From IMG/VR virus record IMGVR_UViG_3300045993_000138: DNA of 64,000 bases; one strand, given 5' to 3'. This DNA comes from a virus. Taxonomy: Duplodnaviria > Heunggongvirae > Uroviricota > Caudoviricetes. The position numbers and the translations under genes were made by a program. The first letter of the stretch is position 1. Every line of letters starts with the position of its first letter. The notes beneath the pieces were generated by a model, which saw only the letters and a program-made list of their open reading frames with translations, did no database searches and had not been told where the DNA came from. Below, in pieces: positions 15,504 through 35,822 of the stretch.

Positions 15504-15578
15504 GCGTCCATAGTATAAAGGCTATTATGAGTGCCTTCCAAGCACATGATGCGAGTTCGATTCTCGCTGGACGCTCCA
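15504..15578 (+). tRNA. tRNA-Gly(TCC)
   Basis: cloverleaf, loop CTTCCAA, TTCG T-loop, CCA. Confidence 0.9.
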
Positions 15579-15585
15579 AGTTTAT

Positions 15586-15661
15586 TGGTAGGTGACTAGA
15601 GTGGTAATAGCCGCGACTGTTAATCGCGTATTCACAGGTTCGATCCCTGTCCTACCAGCCA
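15586..15661 (+). tRNA. tRNA-Asn(GTT)
   Basis: loop CTGTTAA, CCA. Confidence 0.9.
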
Positions 15662-15667
15662 ATTTAA

Positions 15668-16040
15668 CGTGATGGAAATGTGGGTTAAAATCCCGCAAGG
15701 GCAACTATACTGCTTGATGGTCTAAAGACTAAGACTCCATCCATTTATTCGACTACGCTGAGTAATCGCGAGTCAAACGATATCCCACTGATTACACTAA
15801 ATTGTGGGGCGTGTATGATGGAGGAAGGGCATTCCATCAATAAAAAAGCAACCCGTCCGTGCGATAGCAATGACCCACGGCGCAGAAGATACATAAGGTA
15901 GTGATACGAGGGAAATCCCCTATCACAATGAGAAATGTATCGATTGACTCGCTGCGAAATGAACGAGAGTCTAACCATGATCGTAGTTGCCTACGGAAGA
16001 GGGACTGATCCAGTCAGTTCAAAACGGCATCAACTGGAAG
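15668..16040 (+). ncRNA. unassigned large structured RNA
   Basis: long-range helices 15700-07/15984-91, 15768-76/15944-52, 15714-20/15834-40, 15735-41/15817-23, 15888-94/15935-41; no plausible + strand ORF. Confidence 0.6.
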
Positions 16041-16045
16041 TTTTC

Positions 16046-16120
16046 GGGGAATTAGTATAATGGCTATTACTGTGCGTTTGCAACGCATTGACGAGGGTTC
16101 GACTCCCTCATTCTCCACCA
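16046..16120 (+). tRNA. tRNA-Ala(TGC)
   Basis: loop TTTGCAA, G3:U70, CCA. Confidence 0.9.
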
Positions 16121-16126
16121 ATTTTC

Positions 16127-16212
16127 GGGTGAACGGTAACGACGGCGAGTTACACCAGACTGTAAATCTGATGCCTCCGGCTCAGTAGGTTCGAATCCTA
16201 CTTCACCCACCA
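16127..16212 (+). tRNA. tRNA-Tyr(GTA)
   Basis: loop CTGTAAA, long V arm, CCA. Confidence 0.88.
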
Positions 16213-16314
16213 ATATGAAAAACAGGGCTTGCCCTGCTGTGTAAGGAAGTGTCTCTTGTAGAATTACTCCAAGTCAGCCGTTTGAGAGGGCACCGATACC
16301 CTTCTCGCCTTTTC

Positions 16315-16389
16315 GGGGAATGTGCTAGGAACACGGATTTGCCTTGCAAGCAGATTGCCAGATCGGAGCGTAACCGATATTCTCCACCA
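16315..16389 (+). tRNA. atypical tRNA-Ala(TGC)
   Basis: GGGGAAT/ATTCTCC-ACCA, loop CTTGCAA, T-loop AGCGTAA. Confidence 0.7.
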
Positions 16390-16397
16390 ATTTACTT

Positions 16398-16474
16398 GGG
16401 TCCGTAGCTCAAATGGACAGAGCAGCAGACTTTTAATCTGAAGGCTGTGGGATCGTACCCCACTGGACCCACCA
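16398..16474 (+). tRNA. tRNA-Lys(TTT)
   Basis: loop CTTTTAA, T-loop ATCGTAC, CCA. Confidence 0.85.
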
Positions 16475-16662
16475 AGTTTTGTTGAGAGTAGATGTCGAGA
16501 AATCTGTCGCCTAATTAGCGGCAAGAAAGATGAGGTTTCCCAGTGGGATCGGCTGCATCAAGTATTGACTATTACTGCGTACCACTAACCCTGCGCGCTT
16601 TATTACAAGGGAAAAATGGTTTCGAATATAGGTGGCGAAACGTCTCAACAAATTTATTTTAT

Positions 16663-16741
16663 CTGAGTGTGGGCTAATTGGCAAAGCTACCTGATTTGGA
16701 GTCAGGACATCATGTAGGTTCAAGTCCTACCATTCAGACCA
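16663..16741 (+). tRNA. tRNA-Pro(TGG)
   Basis: loop TTTGGAG, CCA. Confidence 0.9.
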
Positions 16742-16746
16742 ATTTT

Positions 16747-16849
16747 GCGTCGGCAAGTGAGAGGGCAATTTAGGTGTGCTCAAACCAAGTAACATGGATC
16801 CAATGTGAAAGGTATCTTTCTGTAGGTTCAAATCCTACCTGATGCTCCA
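16747..16849 (+). tRNA. tRNA-like RNA, anticodon undetermined
   Basis: acceptor GCGTCGG/CTGATGC-TCCA and canonical T arm, irregular middle. Confidence 0.5.
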
Positions 16850-16857
16850 AGTTTTAT

Positions 16858-16952
16858 CCCCGATAGCACAGGCGTGCGGGTGGGTTTTATAAACCCGCGA
16901 GAGTTGCCAGATTAGCGACAACGGGAAGGATCGTTACCTTCATCGGGGACCA
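16858..16952 (+). tRNA. tRNA with UAU anticodon and long variable arm
   Basis: CCCCGAT/ATCGGGG-ACCA, loop TTTATAA, ~26 nt V region, T-loop ATCGTTA. Confidence 0.7.
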
Positions 16953-16958
16953 AATTAT

Positions 16959-16987
16959 TTGACATTTAAAGAAATGTCCTATATAAT
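16959..16987 (+). promoter_or_regulatory. sigma70-type internal promoter
   Basis: TTGACA-17-TATAAT just before tRNA-Pro(GGG). Confidence 0.7.
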
Positions 16988-16996
16988 AGATCATAT

Positions 16997-17072
16997 CAGG
17001 GTGTAGCTCAATTGGTAGAGCGCAACGTTTGGGGCGTTGATGTTAAGAGTTCGAGTCCCTTCATCCTGACCA
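16997..17072 (+). tRNA. tRNA-Pro(GGG)
   Basis: loop TTGGGGC, CCA. Confidence 0.88.
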
Positions 17073-17089
17073 ATTTAAAGTGAGAAATT

Positions 17090-17761
17090 ATGTTTGTATA
17101 TAAAAGTGGTATGAACAATACTGAAAGAACATTCACAGACATTTTTAATCACGGTACTTGGGGACCAGTGAAGAGTGGAGACGGATCCACGATCAGATAC
17201 ACTGAAAACCTAAGGAAAGAACTTCCGCTTGTATTTGGAAAGTTCGGTGTGCAGACATTTCTAGATGCGCCTTGTGGCGACATGACATGGATGCCACTAG
17301 TATTGAAAGAATCAAACATCAATTATATTGGTGGAGATATTGTCGGAAACATGATTGAACAGCATACCGCACAGTATGCAAATGAAAGAACTAAGTTCCA
17401 ACATTTGGATATTTGTCGCGACGCTCTTCCATCAGCAGATCTTTGGATGTGTCGAGATTGTTTGTTTCATCTGTGTGAAGAAGAAATCTTCATGGCACTG
17501 AACAACTTTGTGAAGTCAGATATCAAATATATTCTAACTTCGACACACTTCAGTGATTCGATAAACAATATCACTGGCGGTAGTTACAATGGGAATTTTG
17601 ATATTGTAACTGGTGGATTCAGGCTTCTCAATTTGTTTGATAAGCCATACAATTTTCCAGAACCGCTTTATAGAATTGCTGATGCTCTTGTAGGGTTTCC
17701 GAGACGCGAAATGTGCGTCTGGTCTAGAGAGCAGATTGCAAATGTTTTAATGGGTGGATAG
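17090..17761 (+). CDS. class I SAM-dependent methyltransferase
   Basis: FLDAPCGD motif I, GGDIV, RDCLFHL. Confidence 0.8.
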   Translation: MFVYKSGMNNTERTFTDIFNHGTWGPVKSGDGSTIRYTENLRKELPLVFGKFGVQTFLDAPCGDMTWMPLVLKESNINYIGGDIVGNMIEQHTAQYANERTKFQHLDICRDALPSADLWMCRDCLFHLCEEEIFMALNNFVKSDIKYILTSTHFSDSINNITGGSYNGNFDIVTGGFRLLNLFDKPYNFPEPLYRIADALVGFPRREMCVWSREQIANVLMGG

Positions 17762-17826
17762 TATAATGGTAGTACAGCAGCCTCCAAATCTGCACGGTCA
17801 GGGTTCGAATCCTTGTCTGCCCGCCA
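17752..17826 (+). tRNA. tRNA-Trp(CCA)
   Basis: loop CTCCAAA, CCA; overlaps last codons of upstream CDS. Confidence 0.85.
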
Positions 17827-17957
17827 AATGATAGTATCGCTGTCTGGTCTGTATTAAATTACGGGATGGCACCGAAGGGTGTAAATCGACTACAGTGATA
17901 GTGGATCAAGCTTCCACCGTTTTGTGGTGTTTCGAAAAACCACACATAGTTTTCAAT

Positions 17958-18035
17958 GCGTTTGTCGTATAACTGGCAAATTATACCTGACTCTTACTCA
18001 GGCTGATCAGGGTTCGAATCCCTGCGAACGCACCA
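17958..18035 (+). tRNA. tRNA-Lys(CTT)
   Basis: loop CTCTTAC, CCA. Confidence 0.82.
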
Positions 18036-18042
18036 ATTTTAT

Positions 18043-18119
18043 GCGCCTATAGTGAAATGGAATTATCACAAGAGTCTACGAAACTCTTATTACAGGTTCG
18101 AATCCTGTTAGGCGTGCCA
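18043..18119 (+). tRNA. tRNA-Arg(ACG)
   Basis: loop CTACGAA, CCA. Confidence 0.88.
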
Positions 18120-18150
18120 AACATCGTCGGTTTCAACATCGACGTATCGA

Positions 18151-18281
18151 TTAGTAGGAAGACGTTGGTTCGAATCCAACTGGCATAGTGATCAAACCTC
18201 TGTGGACGCACAGTGTAAGCGGAAGCGCGAGTTGATCGACAAAACTATGCTGTAGCTTAGTGGAAGAGCGTCCTGCGCTAA
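18151..18281 (+). ncRNA. circularly permuted tRNA mimic (YrlA Y-RNA-like architecture)
   Basis: T arm 18164-80, acceptor-like helix 18181-89/18244-52 closed by a branched insert, D arm 18253-69, terminal helix GTAGGA/TCCTGC. Confidence 0.7.
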
Positions 18282-18285
18282 ATTT

Positions 18286-18360
18286 GCTCTCAAAGCATTG
18301 ACGGCGATGCGCGGGTTTTGTAAGCCTGATAACTCAGTTCGACTCCGAGTGAGAGCACCA
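18286..18360 (+). tRNA. tRNA-Thr(TGT)
   Basis: loop TTTGTAA, CCA. Confidence 0.88.
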
Positions 18361-18363
18361 AAT

Positions 18364-18462
18364 TTGAGTCAGAAGTGTAGTGGTTGCACGGGAAGTCCGA
18401 GACGCATAATCTGCGGAGTAGGCATCCAAATGCCAAGAGTGGTTCGATTCCACATGACTCAA
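18364..18462 (+). ncRNA. tRNA-like RNA with branched anticodon domain, no CCA
   Basis: TTGAGTCA/TGACTCAA stem, D-like arm, GTGG-TTCGATT-CCAC T arm. Confidence 0.5.
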
Positions 18463-18472
18463 TGTTTTATAT

Positions 18473-18547
18473 GGTCCCATCGTCTAGCGGTAAGGATAAG
18501 AGACTTTCAATCTTTTGACAGGGGTTCGATTCCCCTTGGGACTACCA
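18473..18547 (+). tRNA. tRNA-Glu(TTC)
   Basis: loop CTTTCAA, CCA. Confidence 0.9.
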
Positions 18548-18552
18548 ATTTC

Positions 18553-18630
18553 GGATACGTAGCATAAATGGCTTGTGCGTCACTCTCATAAAGTGAAATG
18601 GTATTGGTTCAATTCCAATCGTATCCTCCA
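18553..18630 (+). tRNA. tRNA(CAT), Met or Ile2
   Basis: loop CTCATAA, CCA. Confidence 0.82.
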
Positions 18631-18637
18631 GTTTTAT

Positions 18638-18711
18638 GCGCCCTTCGTATAGAAGCATTACCTTGGTTTTACATACCAAAGAAGGCGGAGCATTACCGTC
18701 AGGGCGTACCA
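18638..18711 (+). tRNA. tRNA-Val(TAC)
   Basis: loop TTTACAT, T-loop AGCATTA, CCA. Confidence 0.75.
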
Positions 18712-18788
18712 AATTGCCATTGAAAAGATGGATAGAGAAAGTCGGTCGAATCTAGACTTGACAGGGGGAGAGTCTCCACCAATTTTAT

Positions 18789-18861
18789 AGCGGGTAAGTA
18801 GACGATTGCTACGCTGCGTTCATACCGCAGAGAGGATGTGAGACTCATCATCCCGCTACCA
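18789..18861 (+). tRNA. atypical tRNA-Met(CAT)
   Basis: CTGCG-TTCATAC-CGCAG arm, T-loop TGAGACT, CCA. Confidence 0.6.
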
Positions 18862-18868
18862 ATTTTAA

Positions 18869-18943
18869 CGCCTGATAAGTTAACGATATAGACTAGTCAC
18901 CTGATCAGTGAACAGTGTGGTATGAAATCCACAAAGGCGACCA
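18869..18943 (+). tRNA. degenerate tRNA-Ile(GAT)-like
   Basis: CGCCT/AGGCG-ACCA, loop CTGATCA, irregular D and T arms. Confidence 0.45.
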
Positions 18944-19136
18944 TTTTTGTAGTCTTGCGCGAGGCAAGGTAAAAGGCACTGCGGGTAGAAATACCGATAA
19001 ACATCGAAGCGCAGTTTAAATAGATTGTGTTCAGCCTACTACAATTTTACAACACTGAGCGGAGAGATCACCGCACGGAGGACGGCGCAAACACTCACCT
19101 TAAAAATGAGAACAATTAGCCATCCCAACTTTTTAT

Positions 19137-19210
19137 AGGACCGTAGCTCAAAAGTAGAGCAATGTACTGATAATGCATAGACGAAGGAGCGTTACCTTCT
19201 GGTCCTACCA
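19137..19210 (+). tRNA. tRNA-Ile(GAT)
   Basis: loop CTGATAA, T-loop AGCGTTA, CCA. Confidence 0.8.
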
Positions 19211-19216
19211 ATTTTT

Positions 19217-19291
19217 GCTTGTATCGTATAACGGCTAATACGATCTCCCGATTAGAGATTTATCAGGGTTCGAATCCTTGTACAAGCACCA
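19217..19291 (+). tRNA. tRNA with non-canonical anticodon loop (CCGATTA)
   Basis: good acceptor, D and T arms and CCA; C33 and U37 instead of U33 and purine 37. Confidence 0.65.
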
Positions 19292-19621
19292 AGTTTTGAT
19301 GTGGCTCGCGTAAGTCTTAGCGGACATGACGCTTTGTTGTGATGCTCTGAATGTATACTAGTACTTTCATTCAGGCTAAACTTCGTAAATTCGGGGAACA
19401 GAGGCTTCAACGAGTTCTTTGTTCAATAGCAAACCACATCAAATTTAACGTTCCGTTGTTAGCGGATAGTGTGCCCACACGATGAGAAGTAGAGTGACAT
19501 CTACGGGACGGTTCTAGTCAAGCCTTACTAGCGTTAGCAGCACGATAGTCTTTCTGTGTCGTGAAGTGGGGTGACGGTTCAAGCCGAATTACCACCGATA
19601 GAAAGAATGCACCTAATTTAT

Positions 19622-19698
19622 GGCTGGTTAGAATAGTGGCTTAATTCACTACCCTGTCACGGTAGATATCACGGGTTCGAATCCCGTACCAGTCGCCA
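19622..19698 (+). tRNA. tRNA-Asp(GTC)
   Basis: loop CTGTCAC, CCA. Confidence 0.9.
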
Positions 19699-19767
19699 AC
19701 AACAGACAAAGTATTAAACAAAAACGTACTTTGTCTACCTAAATACCTTTTGTTTAAGAAGGTATTC

Positions 19768-20256
19768 ATGAGAAGAATCAACACACTCATAGTAGCAGTT
19801 ATCGCATTAGTGTTATTTACGATTGGTTGGTTTCTTCCTCTGCATAGTTACATCACTCCAAGAGAGGGTGTAGGTTACGCACTAGGATGGATCGGTGCAA
19901 TTGGAATGATGCTGGCATCTTCTTATGCACTGAGAAAAAGGTTTCATAGATTGTTTGATTGGATTGGAAACCATAGAATGGTTTTCGATGTCCACATAAT
20001 CTTCGGAATCTTTGGACCGATAATGATTATGTATCACTGTGGTTACAGGCTTGGAGCAACGAATAGCAATGTCGCATTGTATTCAATGATCGCCGTGGTC
20101 GCAAGTGGTGTAATTGGAAGGTATCTATATATTAGAGTGGATAGAAGTGCGCTAATTAAGAAACTGTTTTCTTGGTGGCACGCAGTTCACCTTCCGTTTC
20201 TAGGTATGTTAATTGTAACGACAATCTTTCATGTCCTAGCATCGTTTTTATACTGA
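19768..20256 (+). CDS. membrane protein with ferric-reductase-like His motifs
   Basis: several TM helices; H-IIFGIFGP-IMIMYH and WWHAVHLPF...FHV. Confidence 0.7.
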   Translation: MRRINTLIVAVIALVLFTIGWFLPLHSYITPREGVGYALGWIGAIGMMLASSYALRKRFHRLFDWIGNHRMVFDVHIIFGIFGPIMIMYHCGYRLGATNSNVALYSMIAVVASGVIGRYLYIRVDRSALIKKLFSWWHAVHLPFLGMLIVTTIFHVLASFLY

Positions 20257-20259
20257 TTC

Positions 20260-20334
20260 GCCCTTATAGTACAATGGCAAGTACGCATCATTGGTAATGA
20301 TGAAATCAAAGTTCAATTCTTTGTTGGGGCACCA
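20260..20334 (+). tRNA. tRNA-Thr(GGT)
   Basis: loop TTGGTAA, CCA. Confidence 0.85.
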
Positions 20335-20352
20335 AAATTTGAGGATAAGATT

Positions 20353-20730
20353 ATGGTTAAAAGATTTACAATGCCTTGTCATGTTTCTCACCGACATGGA
20401 CTTCTAGAACAAGCCAACGGCTATATAATTCAGGCGAGTGATTATGATGTTCTATTTGGAGAGAAGACAAAGTTAGAAGAAAGAAATGCTCTTCTTCAAA
20501 AGCAACTAAATGAACTTCAAAAGAAATACGAAGTTTTGGAAAAGCAAAAAAATCCAAAGGTTGCTAAAAAGAAGAAAGGTGGTTGGATTGTTAAAGTGCC
20601 AGTAGATGAAGATGAATGGATCTATCTAACTGATCTTGCAACCAACGAAAGAATGATTTTTGAAACCGAAGAAGAAGCCGTCAAGTATGGAACTCTTCAA
20701 GGTGTTCATAAGGTAGAGAAGATTAAATAG
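20353..20730 (+). CDS. hypothetical coiled-coil protein
   Basis: gagga RBS, 125 aa. Confidence 0.7.
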   Translation: MVKRFTMPCHVSHRHGLLEQANGYIIQASDYDVLFGEKTKLEERNALLQKQLNELQKKYEVLEKQKNPKVAKKKKGGWIVKVPVDEDEWIYLTDLATNERMIFETEEEAVKYGTLQGVHKVEKIK

Positions 20731-20736
20731 TTTTAT

Positions 20737-20811
20737 GCGGGGATCGCATAATGGTAGTGCCAATGCTTGCCAAGCATTTGTTCGTGGGTTCGATTCCCAT
20801 TCCCCGCTCCA
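20737..20811 (+). tRNA. tRNA-Gly(GCC)
   Basis: loop TTGCCAA, CCA. Confidence 0.9.
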
Positions 20812-20815
20812 ATTT

Positions 20816-20894
20816 GCAAAGTGAGCTAGTGTGGTCATTTCAGCGCACGCCTGAAGAGCGTGATAACCAAGTTCGATTCTTGGACTTTGCACCA
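20816..20894 (+). tRNA. tRNA-Phe(GAA)
   Basis: loop CTGAAGA, CCA. Confidence 0.88.
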
Positions 20895-20900
20895 ATCAAC

Positions 20901-20972
20901 GGGGTCGGGGTTTTGCAGCAGATGCTCCTGCGAAATTAAACCTTAGAGTATTAGGTTACTCCGATTCCACCA
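20901..20972 (+). ncRNA. D-armless tRNA-like RNA with G3:U70
   Basis: GGGGTCG/CGATTCC-ACCA, GAGTA/TACTC T-like arm, one long internal hairpin. Confidence 0.5.
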
Positions 20973-20977
20973 AATTT

Positions 20978-21052
20978 CGCGAAGCTGCTCGGTGAAAGGG
21001 CGTCTACCATTTAAGTAGTTGGTCGGTGGTTAAATTCCATCCTTCGCGACCA
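20978..21052 (+). tRNA. atypical tRNA-Lys(TTT)-like
   Basis: CGCGAAG/CTTCGCG-ACCA, loop CATTTAA (A33), T-loop TTAAATT. Confidence 0.5.
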
Positions 21053-21123
21053 GAGTACTCCACTTAAGATACTGTATCTTCGTCTTTTGTGGGAAGGGGT
21101 GAATACAGCACCCCGAGAGTTTT

Positions 21124-21200
21124 GCTAGTGTGGCGCAATTGGCAGTCGCGTGTGCCTTAGAAGCACAATGTTGTAGGTTCGACTCCTATCACTAGCACCA
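21124..21200 (+). tRNA. tRNA-Leu(TAG), short V arm
   Basis: loop CTTAGAA, CCA. Confidence 0.85.
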
Positions 21201-21207
21201 ATTTTAT

Positions 21208-21285
21208 GCTCCTATCGTCTAGATAGGCTCAGGACACAAGGTTCTCAACCTTGGTACGTGGGTTCGAATCCCGCTAGGAGCGCCA
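21208..21285 (+). tRNA. tRNA-Glu(CTC)
   Basis: loop TTCTCAA, CCA. Confidence 0.88.
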
Positions 21286-21289
21286 GTTT

Positions 21290-21394
21290 AGGATGATTAC
21301 AGCAACTCAATTTAACTCGCCAAACTTGAGTGGGAGTCCAATGGGGACGGTGCGCTAGGGTTCGAATCCCTCCTTAATAGCACTATTCATCCTG
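21290..21394 (+). ncRNA. unassigned RNA of the stem-WCAGCAA family (copy A)
   Basis: AGGATGA/TCATCCT closing stem, ACAGCAA, internal D-like and T-like hairpins. Confidence 0.5.
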
Positions 21395-21406
21395 TTTAGT
21401 TTCTAT

Positions 21407-21484
21407 GGTGATTGTATCATAATTGGTTAATGACCCCGACTGTGAATCGGGATTATGCGAGTTCAACTCTCGTCAATCACCCCA
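21407..21484 (+). tRNA. tRNA-His(GTG)
   Basis: loop CTGTGAA, G-1:C73, CCA. Confidence 0.9.
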
Positions 21485-21493
21485 AGTTTTTAT

Positions 21494-21567
21494 TCTTCCC
21501 TCGTCTAACGGCAGGACGCAATCCTCTGAAGTTTGCTATCGTGGTTCGAATCCACGGGGAAGATCCA
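21494..21567 (+). tRNA. tRNA-Gln(CTG)
   Basis: loop CTCTGAA, CCA. Confidence 0.82.
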
Positions 21568-21642
21568 ATTATCAGTCAACGGTGTAATGACTGCCATTCG
21601 TTAAGAAATGGTGCTGTATGACAGTAGTGAAAAACCGTCTAT

Positions 21643-21717
21643 TCTCCCTTCGTCTAACTGGCAGGACATCTGACTTTGAATCAGCGAATTGAGGTTCGAA
21701 TCCTTGAGGGAGAGCCA
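21643..21717 (+). tRNA. tRNA-Gln(TTG)
   Basis: loop CTTTGAA, CCA. Confidence 0.88.
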
Positions 21718-21747
21718 ATTTACATGTAACCGAAAAAGGAGGTTATT

Positions 21748-22251
21748 ATGGGAGCTACATGGCTCATAAGTGACACTCATTTCGGTCACGAAAATTGCTG
21801 CACTAGGTTCAAGAGAGAAGATGGTTCTCCCCTGCGACCTTTCAAGAATGCAGAAGAAATGAATGCGGAAATGATCAAGCGTTGGAATGCAAGAGTGCGT
21901 CCTGACGACAAGGTTTACCATCTTGGGGATGTCGTAATCAACAAGAAGTATCTTTGGATCGTTTCTCAACTAAACGGTAACAAGAGACTTGTCCGTGGCA
22001 ATCACGATATATTCAAGACGAAGGAATACATCGATGCTGGATTCAAGGAAGTGTATGGAGTTCGTGTCCTAGAGGATATGATTCTTTCTCACATTCCACT
22101 ACATCCAGAATGTATCACGGAAAGATTCTTTCATAACGTTCACGGACACCTTCACGCAAATACGTTGAAGGATAAGAGATATATAAATGTAAGTGTGGAG
22201 CAAATTGATTACGCTCCTATCAGCATTGAAGAAGTTCGTGCAAGATTTTAA
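21748..22251 (+). CDS. calcineurin-like metallophosphoesterase
   Basis: DTHFGH, GD, GNHD, SHIP, HGHLH motifs. Confidence 0.9.
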   Translation: MGATWLISDTHFGHENCCTRFKREDGSPLRPFKNAEEMNAEMIKRWNARVRPDDKVYHLGDVVINKKYLWIVSQLNGNKRLVRGNHDIFKTKEYIDAGFKEVYGVRVLEDMILSHIPLHPECITERFFHNVHGHLHANTLKDKRYINVSVEQIDYAPISIEEVRARF

Positions 22252-22252
22252 C

Positions 22253-22343
22253 GGAAGATGATCCAGTGAGGCACTGGACCTGTTTTGAACGCAGTGGGAC
22301 TGGTGATGAGCCAGTTGGGGATCGATACCTCCGTCTTCCGCCA
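22253..22343 (+). tRNA. tRNA-Ser(TGA)
   Basis: loop TTTGAAC, long V arm, G73, T-loop ATCGATA. Confidence 0.8.
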
Positions 22344-22347
22344 TTTT

Positions 22348-22440
22348 TGTTTCTATGTTTGCATAACGTGAGGAATTGGTATACTTAGCACCGATTCTAT
22401 TGATCGGCGCAATGTCTAGGTTCGAATCCTAGTAGAAACA
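22348..22440 (+). ncRNA. tRNA-like RNA without CCA
   Basis: TGTTTCTA/TAGAAACA stem, Leu-like D arm, 8 bp anticodon-like stem, canonical T arm. Confidence 0.45.
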
Positions 22441-22446
22441 TTTTAT

Positions 22447-22536
22447 AGAGAGTTGCCAGAGTGGTCTATTGGCGCATCTTGGAAAGGTGATGGTGGCGAA
22501 AGCTACACAAGGGTTCAAATCCCTTACTCTCTGCCA
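22447..22536 (+). tRNA. tRNA-Ser(GGA)
   Basis: loop TTGGAAA, long V arm, CCA. Confidence 0.88.
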
Positions 22537-22638
22537 CTACCTCGGTTGGACATATGTGCTGATCGAATGCATGTATCATAGAGGATACATTGCTTGGAAT
22601 GCGACAAATAAACAAACTGCAATCCATTTTTAGTTTTT

Positions 22639-22715
22639 GCCCGTGTGACGGAATTGGCATACCTTGCTCGCTTAGAACGAGTAGCCTAAGAGTTTGAATC
22701 TCTTCATTCGCACCA
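22639..22715 (+). tRNA. degenerate tRNA-Leu(TAG)
   Basis: loop CTTAGAA but mismatched acceptor stem, T-loop TTTGAAT. Confidence 0.55.
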
Positions 22716-22830
22716 AATAGTCTGAGTCGCACTCAGAATGATAAGAGACGATGGTGAGCCTAAAGCGGTGGGGCTTATAAAATCCATTACAAACGTCTAG
22801 GGTAAAACTCCATACGCCGCGCCCAATTTT

Positions 22831-23057
22831 ATATCAAGTCGAGCAATCGCTGTTATACTAGGTTCAATAATACCTTAGTATAATGGAGGTAAGTTCGCGA
22901 TACACCCAAGGCTGGTAGAAGTCGAAAGACGTTATACTACTGAATACGGAAAGGGGTGTACAAGCCAAACAGTCCTAGTCAAGCCTTAACGTAACGGACG
23001 GGTTGGTGCATAGACAAATGATTGCATAGAACAGAATCGCGGCTATGGACTTGATAT
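22831..23057 (+). ncRNA. rnpB: RNase P RNA, minimal form (227 nt)
   Basis: P1 22831-40/23048-57, P2 GCAATC/GATTGC, P3, CR-I GAGGTAAGTTCGCGA, P4 with bulged U pairing TCGCGGCT, P5, P6 pseudoknot AAGGCT/AGCCTT, CATAGACAAATGATTGC and ACAGAATCGCGGCTA conserved tracts. Confidence 0.88.
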
Positions 23058-23066
23058 ATCGTTTTA

Positions 23067-23280
23067 AGGAATGTTACAGCAAACCAAAAATTCCTATGAT
23101 AAAGGACTGGTTGAGGTTCGATTCCTCAAGGTTCCACCAAAAACACATTGTGAGGGGCTAGTTGCATGGCACACACGAACAAAGTGCAACCCATTGTAAT
23201 AGTGATCATAAAAGCAATGAGCAGTGTGTTTCTGATGGGGCTTTAGTGTAATGGTAGCACAGTAAATAAAAACATTCCTG
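23067..23280 (+). ncRNA. permuted (two-piece) tRNA-like RNA, WCAGCAA family copy B
   Basis: 3' tRNA part (T arm, AGGTTCC-ACCA at 23129-39) precedes 5' part (GGGGCTT + D arm at 23237-60); closed by AGGAATGTT/AACATTCCT. Confidence 0.7.
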
Positions 23281-23288
23281 TTTTCTTT

Positions 23289-23375
23289 GGGATCAATTCA
23301 GCAAATCAAACAATAGGTTCGATTCCTATATTTTCCGATTCGGAGAGTTATGACCAAAGGTTGGTCGATGATCCC
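23289..23375 (+). ncRNA. permuted tRNA mimic, WCAGCAA family copy C
   Basis: GGGATCA/TGATCCC stem; order T arm, hairpin acceptor helix, D arm. Confidence 0.7.
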
Positions 23376-23380
23376 GCTTT

Positions 23381-23457
23381 GCATCTGTGACGTAATTGGC
23401 AAACGTGTTACCTTGAGAGGGTAAATTCTGTGGGTTCAAATCCCACCAGATGCACCA
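23381..23457 (+). tRNA. tRNA-Leu(GAG), short V arm
   Basis: loop TTGAGAG, CCA. Confidence 0.85.
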
Positions 23458-23495
23458 AATTCTAAATAGTTGATACCATTCGAAAGGAATCGACT

Positions 23496-23972
23496 ATGAA
23501 CATAAAGTATCTTTGGAACAACAAATGGAGCATACTAAAGAATGCTAATGTGTGGATTAACAAAAGTCCACTAGCAGTTGTTATTGCCATAGTATTCATC
23601 ATTGAACCAGTAGTATCTGGTACAATAGGAATCATTGGAGACTATACTTGGGTTAGACAAAAATTAGATCCAAGTCAAAGACCAGTGACTGCTGCCGAGT
23701 TCAAATTGCTTGACGATCAGGTTGATGCCATTCAGGCGTCCCTTGTCGAAATCAATAGTAAACTTGTGGTGAAGAAAGTCATCACTCCTGATGCACCTAA
23801 AGCAAAAGCTAAACCAGTTGTTGTGGTTGTGGAAGCAGATGCTTCTGGTATATCAAACATACCATCAGTTGGACTTTCAGCACTTAACAAATTTGAAGTT
23901 GCTAAAGTTGAACGTGAAAAGTTATCCAAGAAATTGGATGTGGCTTATCTAGAAAAGAAACCAAAGTTTTAA
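23496..23972 (+). CDS. hypothetical membrane-anchored protein
   Basis: aagga RBS, one TM helix then coiled coil. Confidence 0.65.
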   Translation: MNIKYLWNNKWSILKNANVWINKSPLAVVIAIVFIIEPVVSGTIGIIGDYTWVRQKLDPSQRPVTAAEFKLLDDQVDAIQASLVEINSKLVVKKVITPDAPKAKAKPVVVVVEADASGISNIPSVGLSALNKFEVAKVEREKLSKKLDVAYLEKKPKF

Positions 23973-23975
23973 ATT

Positions 23976-24061
23976 GGAAGATTAACTGTACAGGGTGCAG
24001 ACTCGCTTCGAAAGCGATGGGTCGGGAAACTGATGGGGATCGATACCTCAATCTTCCTCCA
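23976..24061 (+). tRNA. tRNA-Ser(CGA)
   Basis: loop TTCGAAA, long V arm, T-loop ATCGATA. Confidence 0.8.
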
Positions 24062-24068
24062 ATTTTAT

Positions 24069-24143
24069 AGTCCATTAGTTCATCAGTAGAATGCTTCATT
24101 GACATTGAAGAGGTAACAGGGGCAGCACCTGTATGGACTACCA
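24069..24143 (+). tRNA. tRNA-Val(GAC)
   Basis: loop TTGACAT, T-loop GGCAGCA. Confidence 0.8.
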
Positions 24144-24147
24144 ATAT

Positions 24148-35552: not shown

Positions 35553-35822
35553 CTGGTACGTTGATAAGCAATTATCTGAATGAACTTTAGTAAGGCTTGG
35601 AACACGGGATCTGCGATGTTCCCCACCTCCACCATATTATATAGGCAACTCCACCAATGAGTTGCCATCTATGGGGGTGAATAGTTTCGACTCCGAGAGA
35701 TAGAAAGATCGTAGTGTCAGTAAATCAGTAAATGCAAACGATAATTCATTTACACCTATGGCAATTGCTGCTTAATCGCACTTTTGTACAATGAGATTAG
35801 CCCACTTGGAAACAGAACGGGC
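35553..35822 (+). ncRNA. ssrA: permuted two-piece tmRNA
   Basis: acceptor 3' end CACCTCC-ACCA (35624-34) precedes 5' end GGGGGTG (35673-79, G3:U70); tag ANDNSFTPMAIAA* at 35734-75; CTTGGAAACAGAAC tract; outer ends approximate. Confidence 0.92.

Follow-up and report, generated by a model that had tools for sequence, protein, structure and literature searches.

Can a bacteriophage carry its own RNase P RNA? This RNA is among the few universal ribozymes and, to our knowledge, it is treated as a cellular housekeeping gene. The question is raised by a 227-nt stretch in the DNA of an uncultured freshwater T4-like phage, where it lies within an array of about 30 tRNA genes. The DNA that we analysed, hereafter the window, is 64,000 nt long. 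It is phage DNA, with genes for a lysozyme-bearing T4-type baseplate hub, for wedge proteins, for HNH endonucleases and for NAD salvage; by a wedge protein, its nearest cultured relatives are Synechococcus, Methylophilales, Pelagibacter and Sinorhizobium myophages, at less than 40% identity. A preliminary description made from the sequence had assigned positions 22831-23057 to an RNase P RNA of the phage whose catalytic domain (C-domain) is intact and whose specificity domain (S-domain) is cut to a remnant. A full-text literature search turned up no paper on an RNase P RNA encoded by a phage.

A permissive Rfam scan of 22700-23250 matched RNaseP_arch (RF00373) to 22831-23057 on the + strand, over model positions 1-288 of 288 and with exact ends, at 27 bits (E 6e-6, or about 7e-4 when scaled to the whole 64-kb window). 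The model search suggested at the outset thus gave an end-to-end match, at a score below the 84-bit gathering score of RNaseP_arch, and a scan of the window at gathering thresholds returned 31 tRNA matches and a permuted tmRNA and no RNase P RNA. The score is low because 66 nt, which extend past the stub described below, replace 148 S-domain positions of the model. In the competition within Rfam clan CL00002, RNaseP_arch was retained over type T as the best model for this RNA, and the minimum free energy fold of the 227-nt gene has a z of -3.2 against shuffles. A blastn search of 22700-23200 against 50,697 phage records gave no match at E 1e-5, and the RNA alone, at E 1, gave a sole match, from its CR-IV/V end to the cultured phage DLP6.

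The elements of the gene and of the array around it are listed here, each with the evidence on which it was placed.

15504-25197, + strand: co-oriented phage tRNA array with 31 tRNA-model matches, the presumed substrates (Rfam scan)
22831-23057, + strand: whole mini RNase P RNA gene, a molecule closed by P1 (global RNaseP_arch match)
22831-22840 with 23048-23057, + strand: P1 5' strand, 10 bp (pairing; sequence differs in almost every family member)
22843-22848 with GAUUGC at 23020-23025, + strand: P2 5' strand GCAAUC, 6 bp (pairing; family covariation)
22850-22886, + strand: P3 hairpin, 14 bp, one bulged U, 8-nt loop (pairing)
22885-22900, + strand: CR-I, GGAGGUAAGUUCGCGA, comprising J3/4 and the P4 5' strand with its bulged U (model and family alignment)
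22892-22900 with 23037-23044, + strand: P4, 8 bp plus one bulged U, formed from CR-I and CR-V (pairing; 100% paired in the family)
22901-22907 with 22954-22960, + strand: P5 5' strand, 7 bp (pairing; strain and family covariation)
22908-22913 with 22982-22987 in the P17 loop, + strand: P6 pseudoknot, AAGGCU/AGCCUU (pairing; strain compensatory changes)
22914-22941, + strand: S-domain stub, 28 nt, with a 5-bp stem at the P7 position, an asymmetric internal loop AA / GUUAUA and a 3-bp GAAA hairpin (pairing; family covariation)
22942-22953, + strand: 12-nt linker GAAUACGGAAAG from the stub to the P5 3' strand (kept in the sub-clade, by alignment with L106, L080 and L050)
22961-23007, + strand: J5/15 (CAA), P15, P16, P17 and L15 (pairing; family alignment)
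22964-22966 with 23005-23007, + strand: P15 (canonical pairs; 95% paired in the family)
22972-22975 with 22996-22999, + strand: P16 (canonical pairs; 95% paired in the family)
23000-23004, + strand: L15 loop GGGUU (GGU invariant in the family alignment)
23011-23020, + strand: CR-IV (UAGACAAAUG), the junction from P15 to P2 (model and family alignment)
23030-23046, + strand: CR-V (AACAGAAUCGCGGCUAU), including the P4 3' strand at 23037-23044 (model and family alignment)

P1-P5, the P6 pseudoknot, P15/16 and CR-I, CR-IV and CR-V had all been proposed to fit within the 227 nt; each could be located, and the pairs listed for P1-P6, P15 and P16 are all canonical. The conserved regions CR-I (GGAGGUAAGUUC), CR-IV (UAGACAAAUGA) and CR-V (AACAGAAUCGCGGCUA) align to the RNaseP_arch consensus and to E. 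coli-like relatives, and every core position that is invariant in the family, the L15 GGU included, is present. P3 is unusually long for the family, in which its length depends on the member. We found no P18 helix in this RNA: P15 runs directly via CR-IV to P2.

The bulged U that had been assigned to P4 is present as a single bulge, but it may not be the base first named. Two pyrimidines follow AAG; across the aligned family the first varies between U and C, whereas the second is always U and may thus be the conserved P4 bulge. The bulge may accordingly be U65 (22895), with U64 then pairing with G212, rather than U64 (22894). A further peculiarity is the U at 22890, an extra base in the universally conserved CR-I/J3/4 that is absent from all 41 aligned relatives. 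A strain variant from metagenome run X6 is without it and carries the usual family GAGGAAGU where the RNA at 22831-23057 has GAGGUAAGU. This U is the one feature of the present copy that could compromise it. The addition may be tolerated, since bacterial RNase P RNAs carry three bases here (GAGGAAAGU).

Contigs from lake-water and peat metagenomes (runs X5 and X6) hold the same phage region at roughly 95% identity. Strain differences fall at 18 sites within the gene, and none breaks a pair. Double changes convert U71-A130 to C-G, A72-U129 to U-A and C73-G128 to G-C in P5, and A78-U157 to G-C and G81-C154 to A-U in P6; three changes (G84A, C93U and A191G) keep or improve a wobble, and five lie at unpaired positions. 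As judged from these substitutions, the fold is under purifying selection. One strain variant has a different P3.

The same reduced architecture recurs in at least 109 distinct family sequences in IMG/VR, a count made after duplicate removal and requiring a 5/5 complementary P4 together with the CR-IV motif. Scanning IMG/VR with a CR-IV/CR-V pattern yielded 31 loci, about 25 of them with the same 3' half, and CR-I...CR-V patterns gave 86 loci with a gap of 125-155 nt, 79 with 156-186 nt, 3 with 95-124 nt and 4 with 64-94 nt. The span from CR-I to CR-V ranges from 110 to 219 nt in the 109 sequences; at 159 nt, the RNA studied here lies in the main peak. Some letters of CR-I and CR-V were specified in the search patterns, and their conservation is in part a product of the search; the helices and the stub were not set by the patterns. 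Patterns beginning GGAGGTAAGT and GAGGNAAGTTC, built on this RNA's own CR-I, returned only chance matches in coding DNA (L001-L003, L102 and L103) and were set aside.

For covariation, 42 members including the RNA at 22831-23057 were aligned with MAFFT, and helix counts were made with our own scripts. MAFFT mis-registers P1, P6 and the P3 of this RNA, and those three were analysed per sequence. RNAalifold recovered P4, the stub, P15 and P16 from the alignment, with compensatory changes in 16 of 24 pairs. Across the 42 sequences, 94% of cells are paired in P2, 93% at the base of P3, 100% in P4, 96% in P5, 95% in both P15 and P16, and 87% in each of the stub stem and the stub hairpin, both of which covary. 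Shifting the partners by one or two columns lowers pairing to 12-51% (0.66 for one P3-base shift). Cells in which both sides have changed number 24-69 per helix, including 69 compensatory cells in P2, where shifted partners are 23-37% paired, and 46 in P4.

In the per-sequence tests, P1 is a strong helix whose sequence is different in nearly every member, and in the median member no other member's 3' strand equals its own in pairing strength. P6, of 5-8 bp, has a different sequence in every member, and the cognate duplexes of the 42 members average -9.35 kcal/mol, against -5.08 (sd 2.56) for non-cognate ones. The closest relatives of our RNA in the alignment are L106, L080 and L050; RNaseP_arch scores are 43.8 bits for L080 and 42.2 bits for L106, and the P2 and P6 of L106 differ from those of the RNA at 22831-23057 yet stay complementary. 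With its bacterial-type C-domain, its P7-like stub with the kept loop, its phage contig and its co-orientation with tRNA genes, this RNA is a well-supported member of a phage-borne family of mini RNase P RNAs.

Because the Rfam match, the family covariation (P6 included), the compensatory changes between strains and the phage and tRNA-array context agree, the sequence evidence identifies 22831-23057 as a bona fide RNase P RNA homologue, and the central claim of the preliminary description stands. Chance as the origin of the likeness is excluded.

What has become of the S-domain, which in bacterial RNase P RNAs grips the tRNA elbow, is the next part of the question. Only the 28-nt stub and the 12-nt linker (22914-22953) lie between the P5 strands, in line with the remnant of about 40 nt with one GAAA hairpin (22921-22930) that had been described. 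In this RNA we found no CR-II, CR-III or P8-P14, and no S-domain helix past the stub. The internal loop is kept across the family in a GA / GUUAAUA-like form in which G88, A106 and C107 are invariant. Because the stem covaries and the loop is kept family-wide, the stub is, on comparative grounds, not junk. The 3' side of the loop loosely resembles the E. coli GGUAAACUCC stretch, which holds the T-loop-binding residues A232 and A233 (PMC11143913). Given that likeness and the conservation of the stub, some elbow contact or docking role may exist; the stub may contact the tRNA elbow, dock on the C-domain or bind protein. An enzyme that matures 5' ends and does not read the T-loop, as first proposed, is plausible in view of the missing CR-II, CR-III and P8-P14.

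Other phages carry RNase P RNAs of several sizes. A 249-nt copy that is not annotated lies in the genome of the cultured Stenotrophomonas phage DLP6 (KU682439.2, 105774-106022; L104 2303-2551); it scores 54.7 bits with RNaseP_bact_a, its best model, and ends 3 nt before a tRNA-Arg gene. It has an extra hairpin at the position of P18, where L025 and L028 also have an insert. A cmscan of a 291-nt DLP6 stretch gave no match, against 54.7 bits in the whole-locus search, which we attribute to a stretch shorter than the model. Two IMG/VR contigs hold full-size bacterial type A RNase P RNAs above the gathering score, one of 368 nt and 247.5 bits on a 433-kb contig (L026 3057-3424) and one of 330 nt and 191 bits on a 168-kb contig (L008 12987-13316), the latter among same-strand tRNAs and beside a tmRNA. 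The phage-borne RNAs thus run from 368 nt down to about 185 nt, a size series that is consistent with descent from a bacterial gene.

The phage-type mini RNA also occurs on five short, tRNA-rich contigs of metagenome-assembled genomes (MAGs) labelled Roizmanbacteria, Actinomycetes, Saccharofermentanales, Flavobacteriales and Planctomycetia (L105, L106, L118, L122 and L124), which are probably phage contigs mis-binned into bacterial genomes. Separately, seven MAG contigs from Micrarchaeota or unclassified archaea (DPANN-type) carry RNase P RNAs of 200-230 nt with RNaseP_arch scores of 82-92 bits and small S-domains (L113 4580-4779, L123 3959-4186 and L108 5713-5920; also L109-L112). The L123 RNA lies about 320 nt from a 23S rRNA gene, and the archaeal MAG RNAs therefore appear cellular. 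The L123 stub, a stem with GAG and a GAAA hairpin, is much like that of the phage RNA, whereas these RNAs differ in being archaeal, in their cellular context without tRNA arrays (L123) and in scoring at or near the gathering threshold.

Bacterial RNase P RNAs are roughly 350-400 nt long. The phage RNA shares with the bacterial type A RNA (E. coli M1 RNA, rnpB; RF00010) P1-P5, P15-P17, P6, CR-I, CR-IV and CR-V, as well as the bulged U of P4 and the L15 GGU for the 3' CCA. It differs in its length of 227 nt, in being virus-encoded and below the gathering threshold, in lacking P18, and in having only a P7-like stem and one hairpin in place of P8-P14 with CR-II and CR-III. These features are consistent with an RNA that works like bacterial type A and descends from it.

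The preliminary description had also pointed to archaeal type T (RF02357; PMC3579882). The likeness holds as an analogy: in both, the catalytic domain is kept, the S-domain is mostly lost, a short P7-based stub remains and standard covariance models miss the RNA. However, the marks that define type T are a P2 of only 3 bp, a P15 shortened by one pair and a linker of 2 nt between P5 and P15 (Chan, Brown and Lowe 2012, PMC3579882), and the phage RNA departs from this definition with a P2 of 6 bp and a 3-nt linker, CAA; it also comes from a bacteriophage, whereas type T uses archaeal proteins. The likeness looks like convergent reduction rather than membership.

A ribozyme of this build has precedents from the laboratory. 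Bacterial C-domains without an S-domain cleave pre-tRNA with or without protein, and in such constructs a P6-type interaction matters while P18 is dispensable (PMC5839562, PMC11143913). The engineered Eco CP RPR and Pfu C-domain (Mao et al. 2018, PMC5839562), which like the phage RNA consist of a catalytic domain alone, act on both pre-tRNA and model substrates whether or not the C5 protein is present; they are laboratory truncations of much reduced efficiency, whereas the phage RNA is encoded by a conserved natural gene and has a stub that is itself conserved. The only viral RNase P-like RNA that our literature search found is the inactive one of camelpox virus (PMC3001073). This orthopoxvirus RNA is likewise virus-encoded with an RNase P-like secondary structure, but it belongs to a eukaryotic virus, is only loosely similar in structure and does not cleave pre-tRNA in vitro (PMC3001073), whereas the phage RNA keeps all the universal core sequences. 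Among ribozymes in phage tRNA clusters, the search found only theta (minimal HDV-like) ribozymes (Kienbeck et al. 2024, PMC10879173), which are also implicated in tRNA end maturation; in contrast to the trans-acting RNase P, these are small and self-cleave in cis at tRNA 3' trailers, with an unrelated fold and chemistry.

What would such an RNA do in this phage? The surrounding tRNA genes offer a clue. Of the 31 tRNA-model matches, 30 encode the 3' CCA, which fits the retained CCA-binding L15 GGU, and most have a U-rich leader such as AUUUUAU. The bases directly 5' of P1 are CCAAUUUUAU (22817-22830: CGCCCAAUUUUAU), the same CCA-plus-AUUUUAU junction that separates tandem tRNAs, and the 5' end of the ribozyme itself may be made like a tRNA 5' end. 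The 118-nt spacer upstream (22713-22830) contains no recognised tRNA and folds no better than shuffles. Promoter- and terminator-like matches near 22262-22385, which are consensus matches only, are compatible with a transcription unit that begins before the tRNA at 22447. The association extends to the family: at 46 of 59 loci a tRNA gene lies no more than 3 kb away, at 40 there are at least three, and all 399 tRNAs near the family RNAs at these 59 loci are on the strand of the RNA. No more than 40 nt separate GGCU from the start of the next tRNA at 16 of 40 loci.

Directly 3' of the RNA, 23058-23145 contains a T-arm and an acceptor 3' strand with a CCA end (half-element at about 23098-23145), and a weak tmRNA_permuted match of 18 bits covers 23112-23245. 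At 23237-23337 lies a tRNA-model match with an insert of roughly 30 nt, which alone among the 31 lacks an encoded CCA. Taken as a pair, 23058-23145 and 23237-23337 look like a permuted or split tRNA-like gene. A calcineurin-like metallophosphoesterase gene (21748-22251) also sits inside the array, and at 5 of 59 family loci homologues lie no more than 3 kb from the mini RNase P RNA; it may be a tRNA-repair or end-processing enzyme, or a coincidence.

The search for a protein cofactor that had been suggested alongside the RNA gave no RnpA-like gene within the window or in the 3-kb flanks of the relatives. Pfam found no Ribonuclease_P domain in the eight neighbouring ORFs, and a six-frame search of the window for the RNR-type motif of RnpA gave one match, which was spurious. 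Clustering of ORFs within 3 kb of 59 family members revealed no consistently linked protein; the best clustered neighbour is an HNH-like ORF, at 10 of 59 loci. Ribozymes that lack the S-domain show weak pre-tRNA binding in vitro (PMC11143913). The phage RNA therefore probably needs a protein, and we infer that the partner is most likely host RnpA.

Taken together, the comparative evidence suggests that 22831-23057 is probably a functional mini RNase P RNA gene of a T4-like phage, transcribed with the array and trimming the 5' leaders of phage pre-tRNAs. In the proposed mechanism, the gene would be transcribed together with the surrounding tRNA genes and the transcript would fold into a bacterial-type catalytic domain, with CR-I, CR-IV and CR-V forming the P4 active site; the folded RNA would then cut the 5' leaders from the phage's own tRNA precursors. 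With only a stub left of the S-domain, the enzyme would bind its substrate through catalytic-domain contacts: the acceptor stem and the -1 position would lie at the active site, the encoded 3' CCA would pair with the L15 GGU, and the leader would be held by a protein, most likely host RnpA. In known enzymes, the L15 GGU base-pairs with the 3' RCCA of the substrate, while leader positions -8 to -3 are contacted by the protein (PMC11143913). The CCA on 30 of 31 tRNAs and the uniform U-rich leaders match an enzyme that depends on both CCA and leader. The benefit to the phage could be more, or host-independent, tRNA-processing capacity during infection. Most of the phage tRNAs score in Rfam as ordinary tRNAs, however, and the host RNase P presumably could process them, so a selective advantage is not thereby accounted for.

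The same features bear on three other readings. The RNA could be an active ribozyme whose main substrates are not ordinary tRNAs but the permuted tRNA-like element just downstream, the permuted tmRNA at 35582-35775 or mRNA leader-like sites. Such RNAs might have no normal elbow, and the host enzyme might cleave them poorly, while an S-domain-less enzyme should tolerate a missing T/D elbow; pre-4.5S RNA, for one, is cleaved without need for an intact S-domain (PMC11143913). The window does hold both a T-arm/acceptor/CCA half-element (about 23098-23145) and the permuted tmRNA. In many phages, however, the family adjoins ordinary tRNA genes, and we saw nothing that ties its presence to permuted RNAs; we regard this reading as unlikely. 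Decay of a captured bacterial rnpB into a functionless remnant would account for the sub-threshold Rfam score, the loss of P18 and most of the S-domain and the insertion in CR-I, but a relic would gather disruptive substitutions, whereas the strain differences break no pair, every helix shows compensatory change and at least 109 distinct sequences keep the reduced architecture; we consider it highly improbable.

Bacterial RNase P protein binds at CR-IV, CR-V, P2 and P3, and this face is kept in the phage RNA, as it would be in a decoy that soaks up host RnpA or competes for pre-tRNA and so depresses host tRNA maturation without cutting. The extra U in CR-I, which might impair catalysis, and the precedent of an inactive viral RNase P-like RNA in camelpox virus (PMC3001073) lean the same way. 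Against such a role, the L15 GGU, the bulged U, J5/15 and P6 are also kept, though they are needed for substrate or catalysis rather than for protein binding, and the phage's own roughly 30 tRNAs need RNase P, so that blocking the enzyme would hurt the phage. A decoy thus seems quite unlikely, and a phage ribozyme that trims phage pre-tRNAs remains the reading that we favour.

We offer, more tentatively, a broader possibility: that large phages own a minimal RNase P ribozyme and with it a route to tRNA maturation that is free of the host rnpB RNA, whether working with hijacked host RnpA or, at the most radical, protein-free or with a phage cofactor that escaped recognition. If this is true, the phage series from 368 to about 185 nt would be an evolutionary experiment on the shrinkage of RNase P RNA in vivo, and the conserved stub would stand in for the S-domain in a new, compact form. 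It would also provide a natural minimal bacterial-type RNase P, beside archaeal type T, for studies of substrate recognition by the C-domain alone, with the cultured phage DLP6 as a system for a direct test. Such genes would explain ORF-free gaps in phage tRNA islands, which annotation pipelines leave blank because the RNA scores fall below Rfam thresholds. Finally, a catalytic RNA would join the translation-related functions that large phages bring into the cell.
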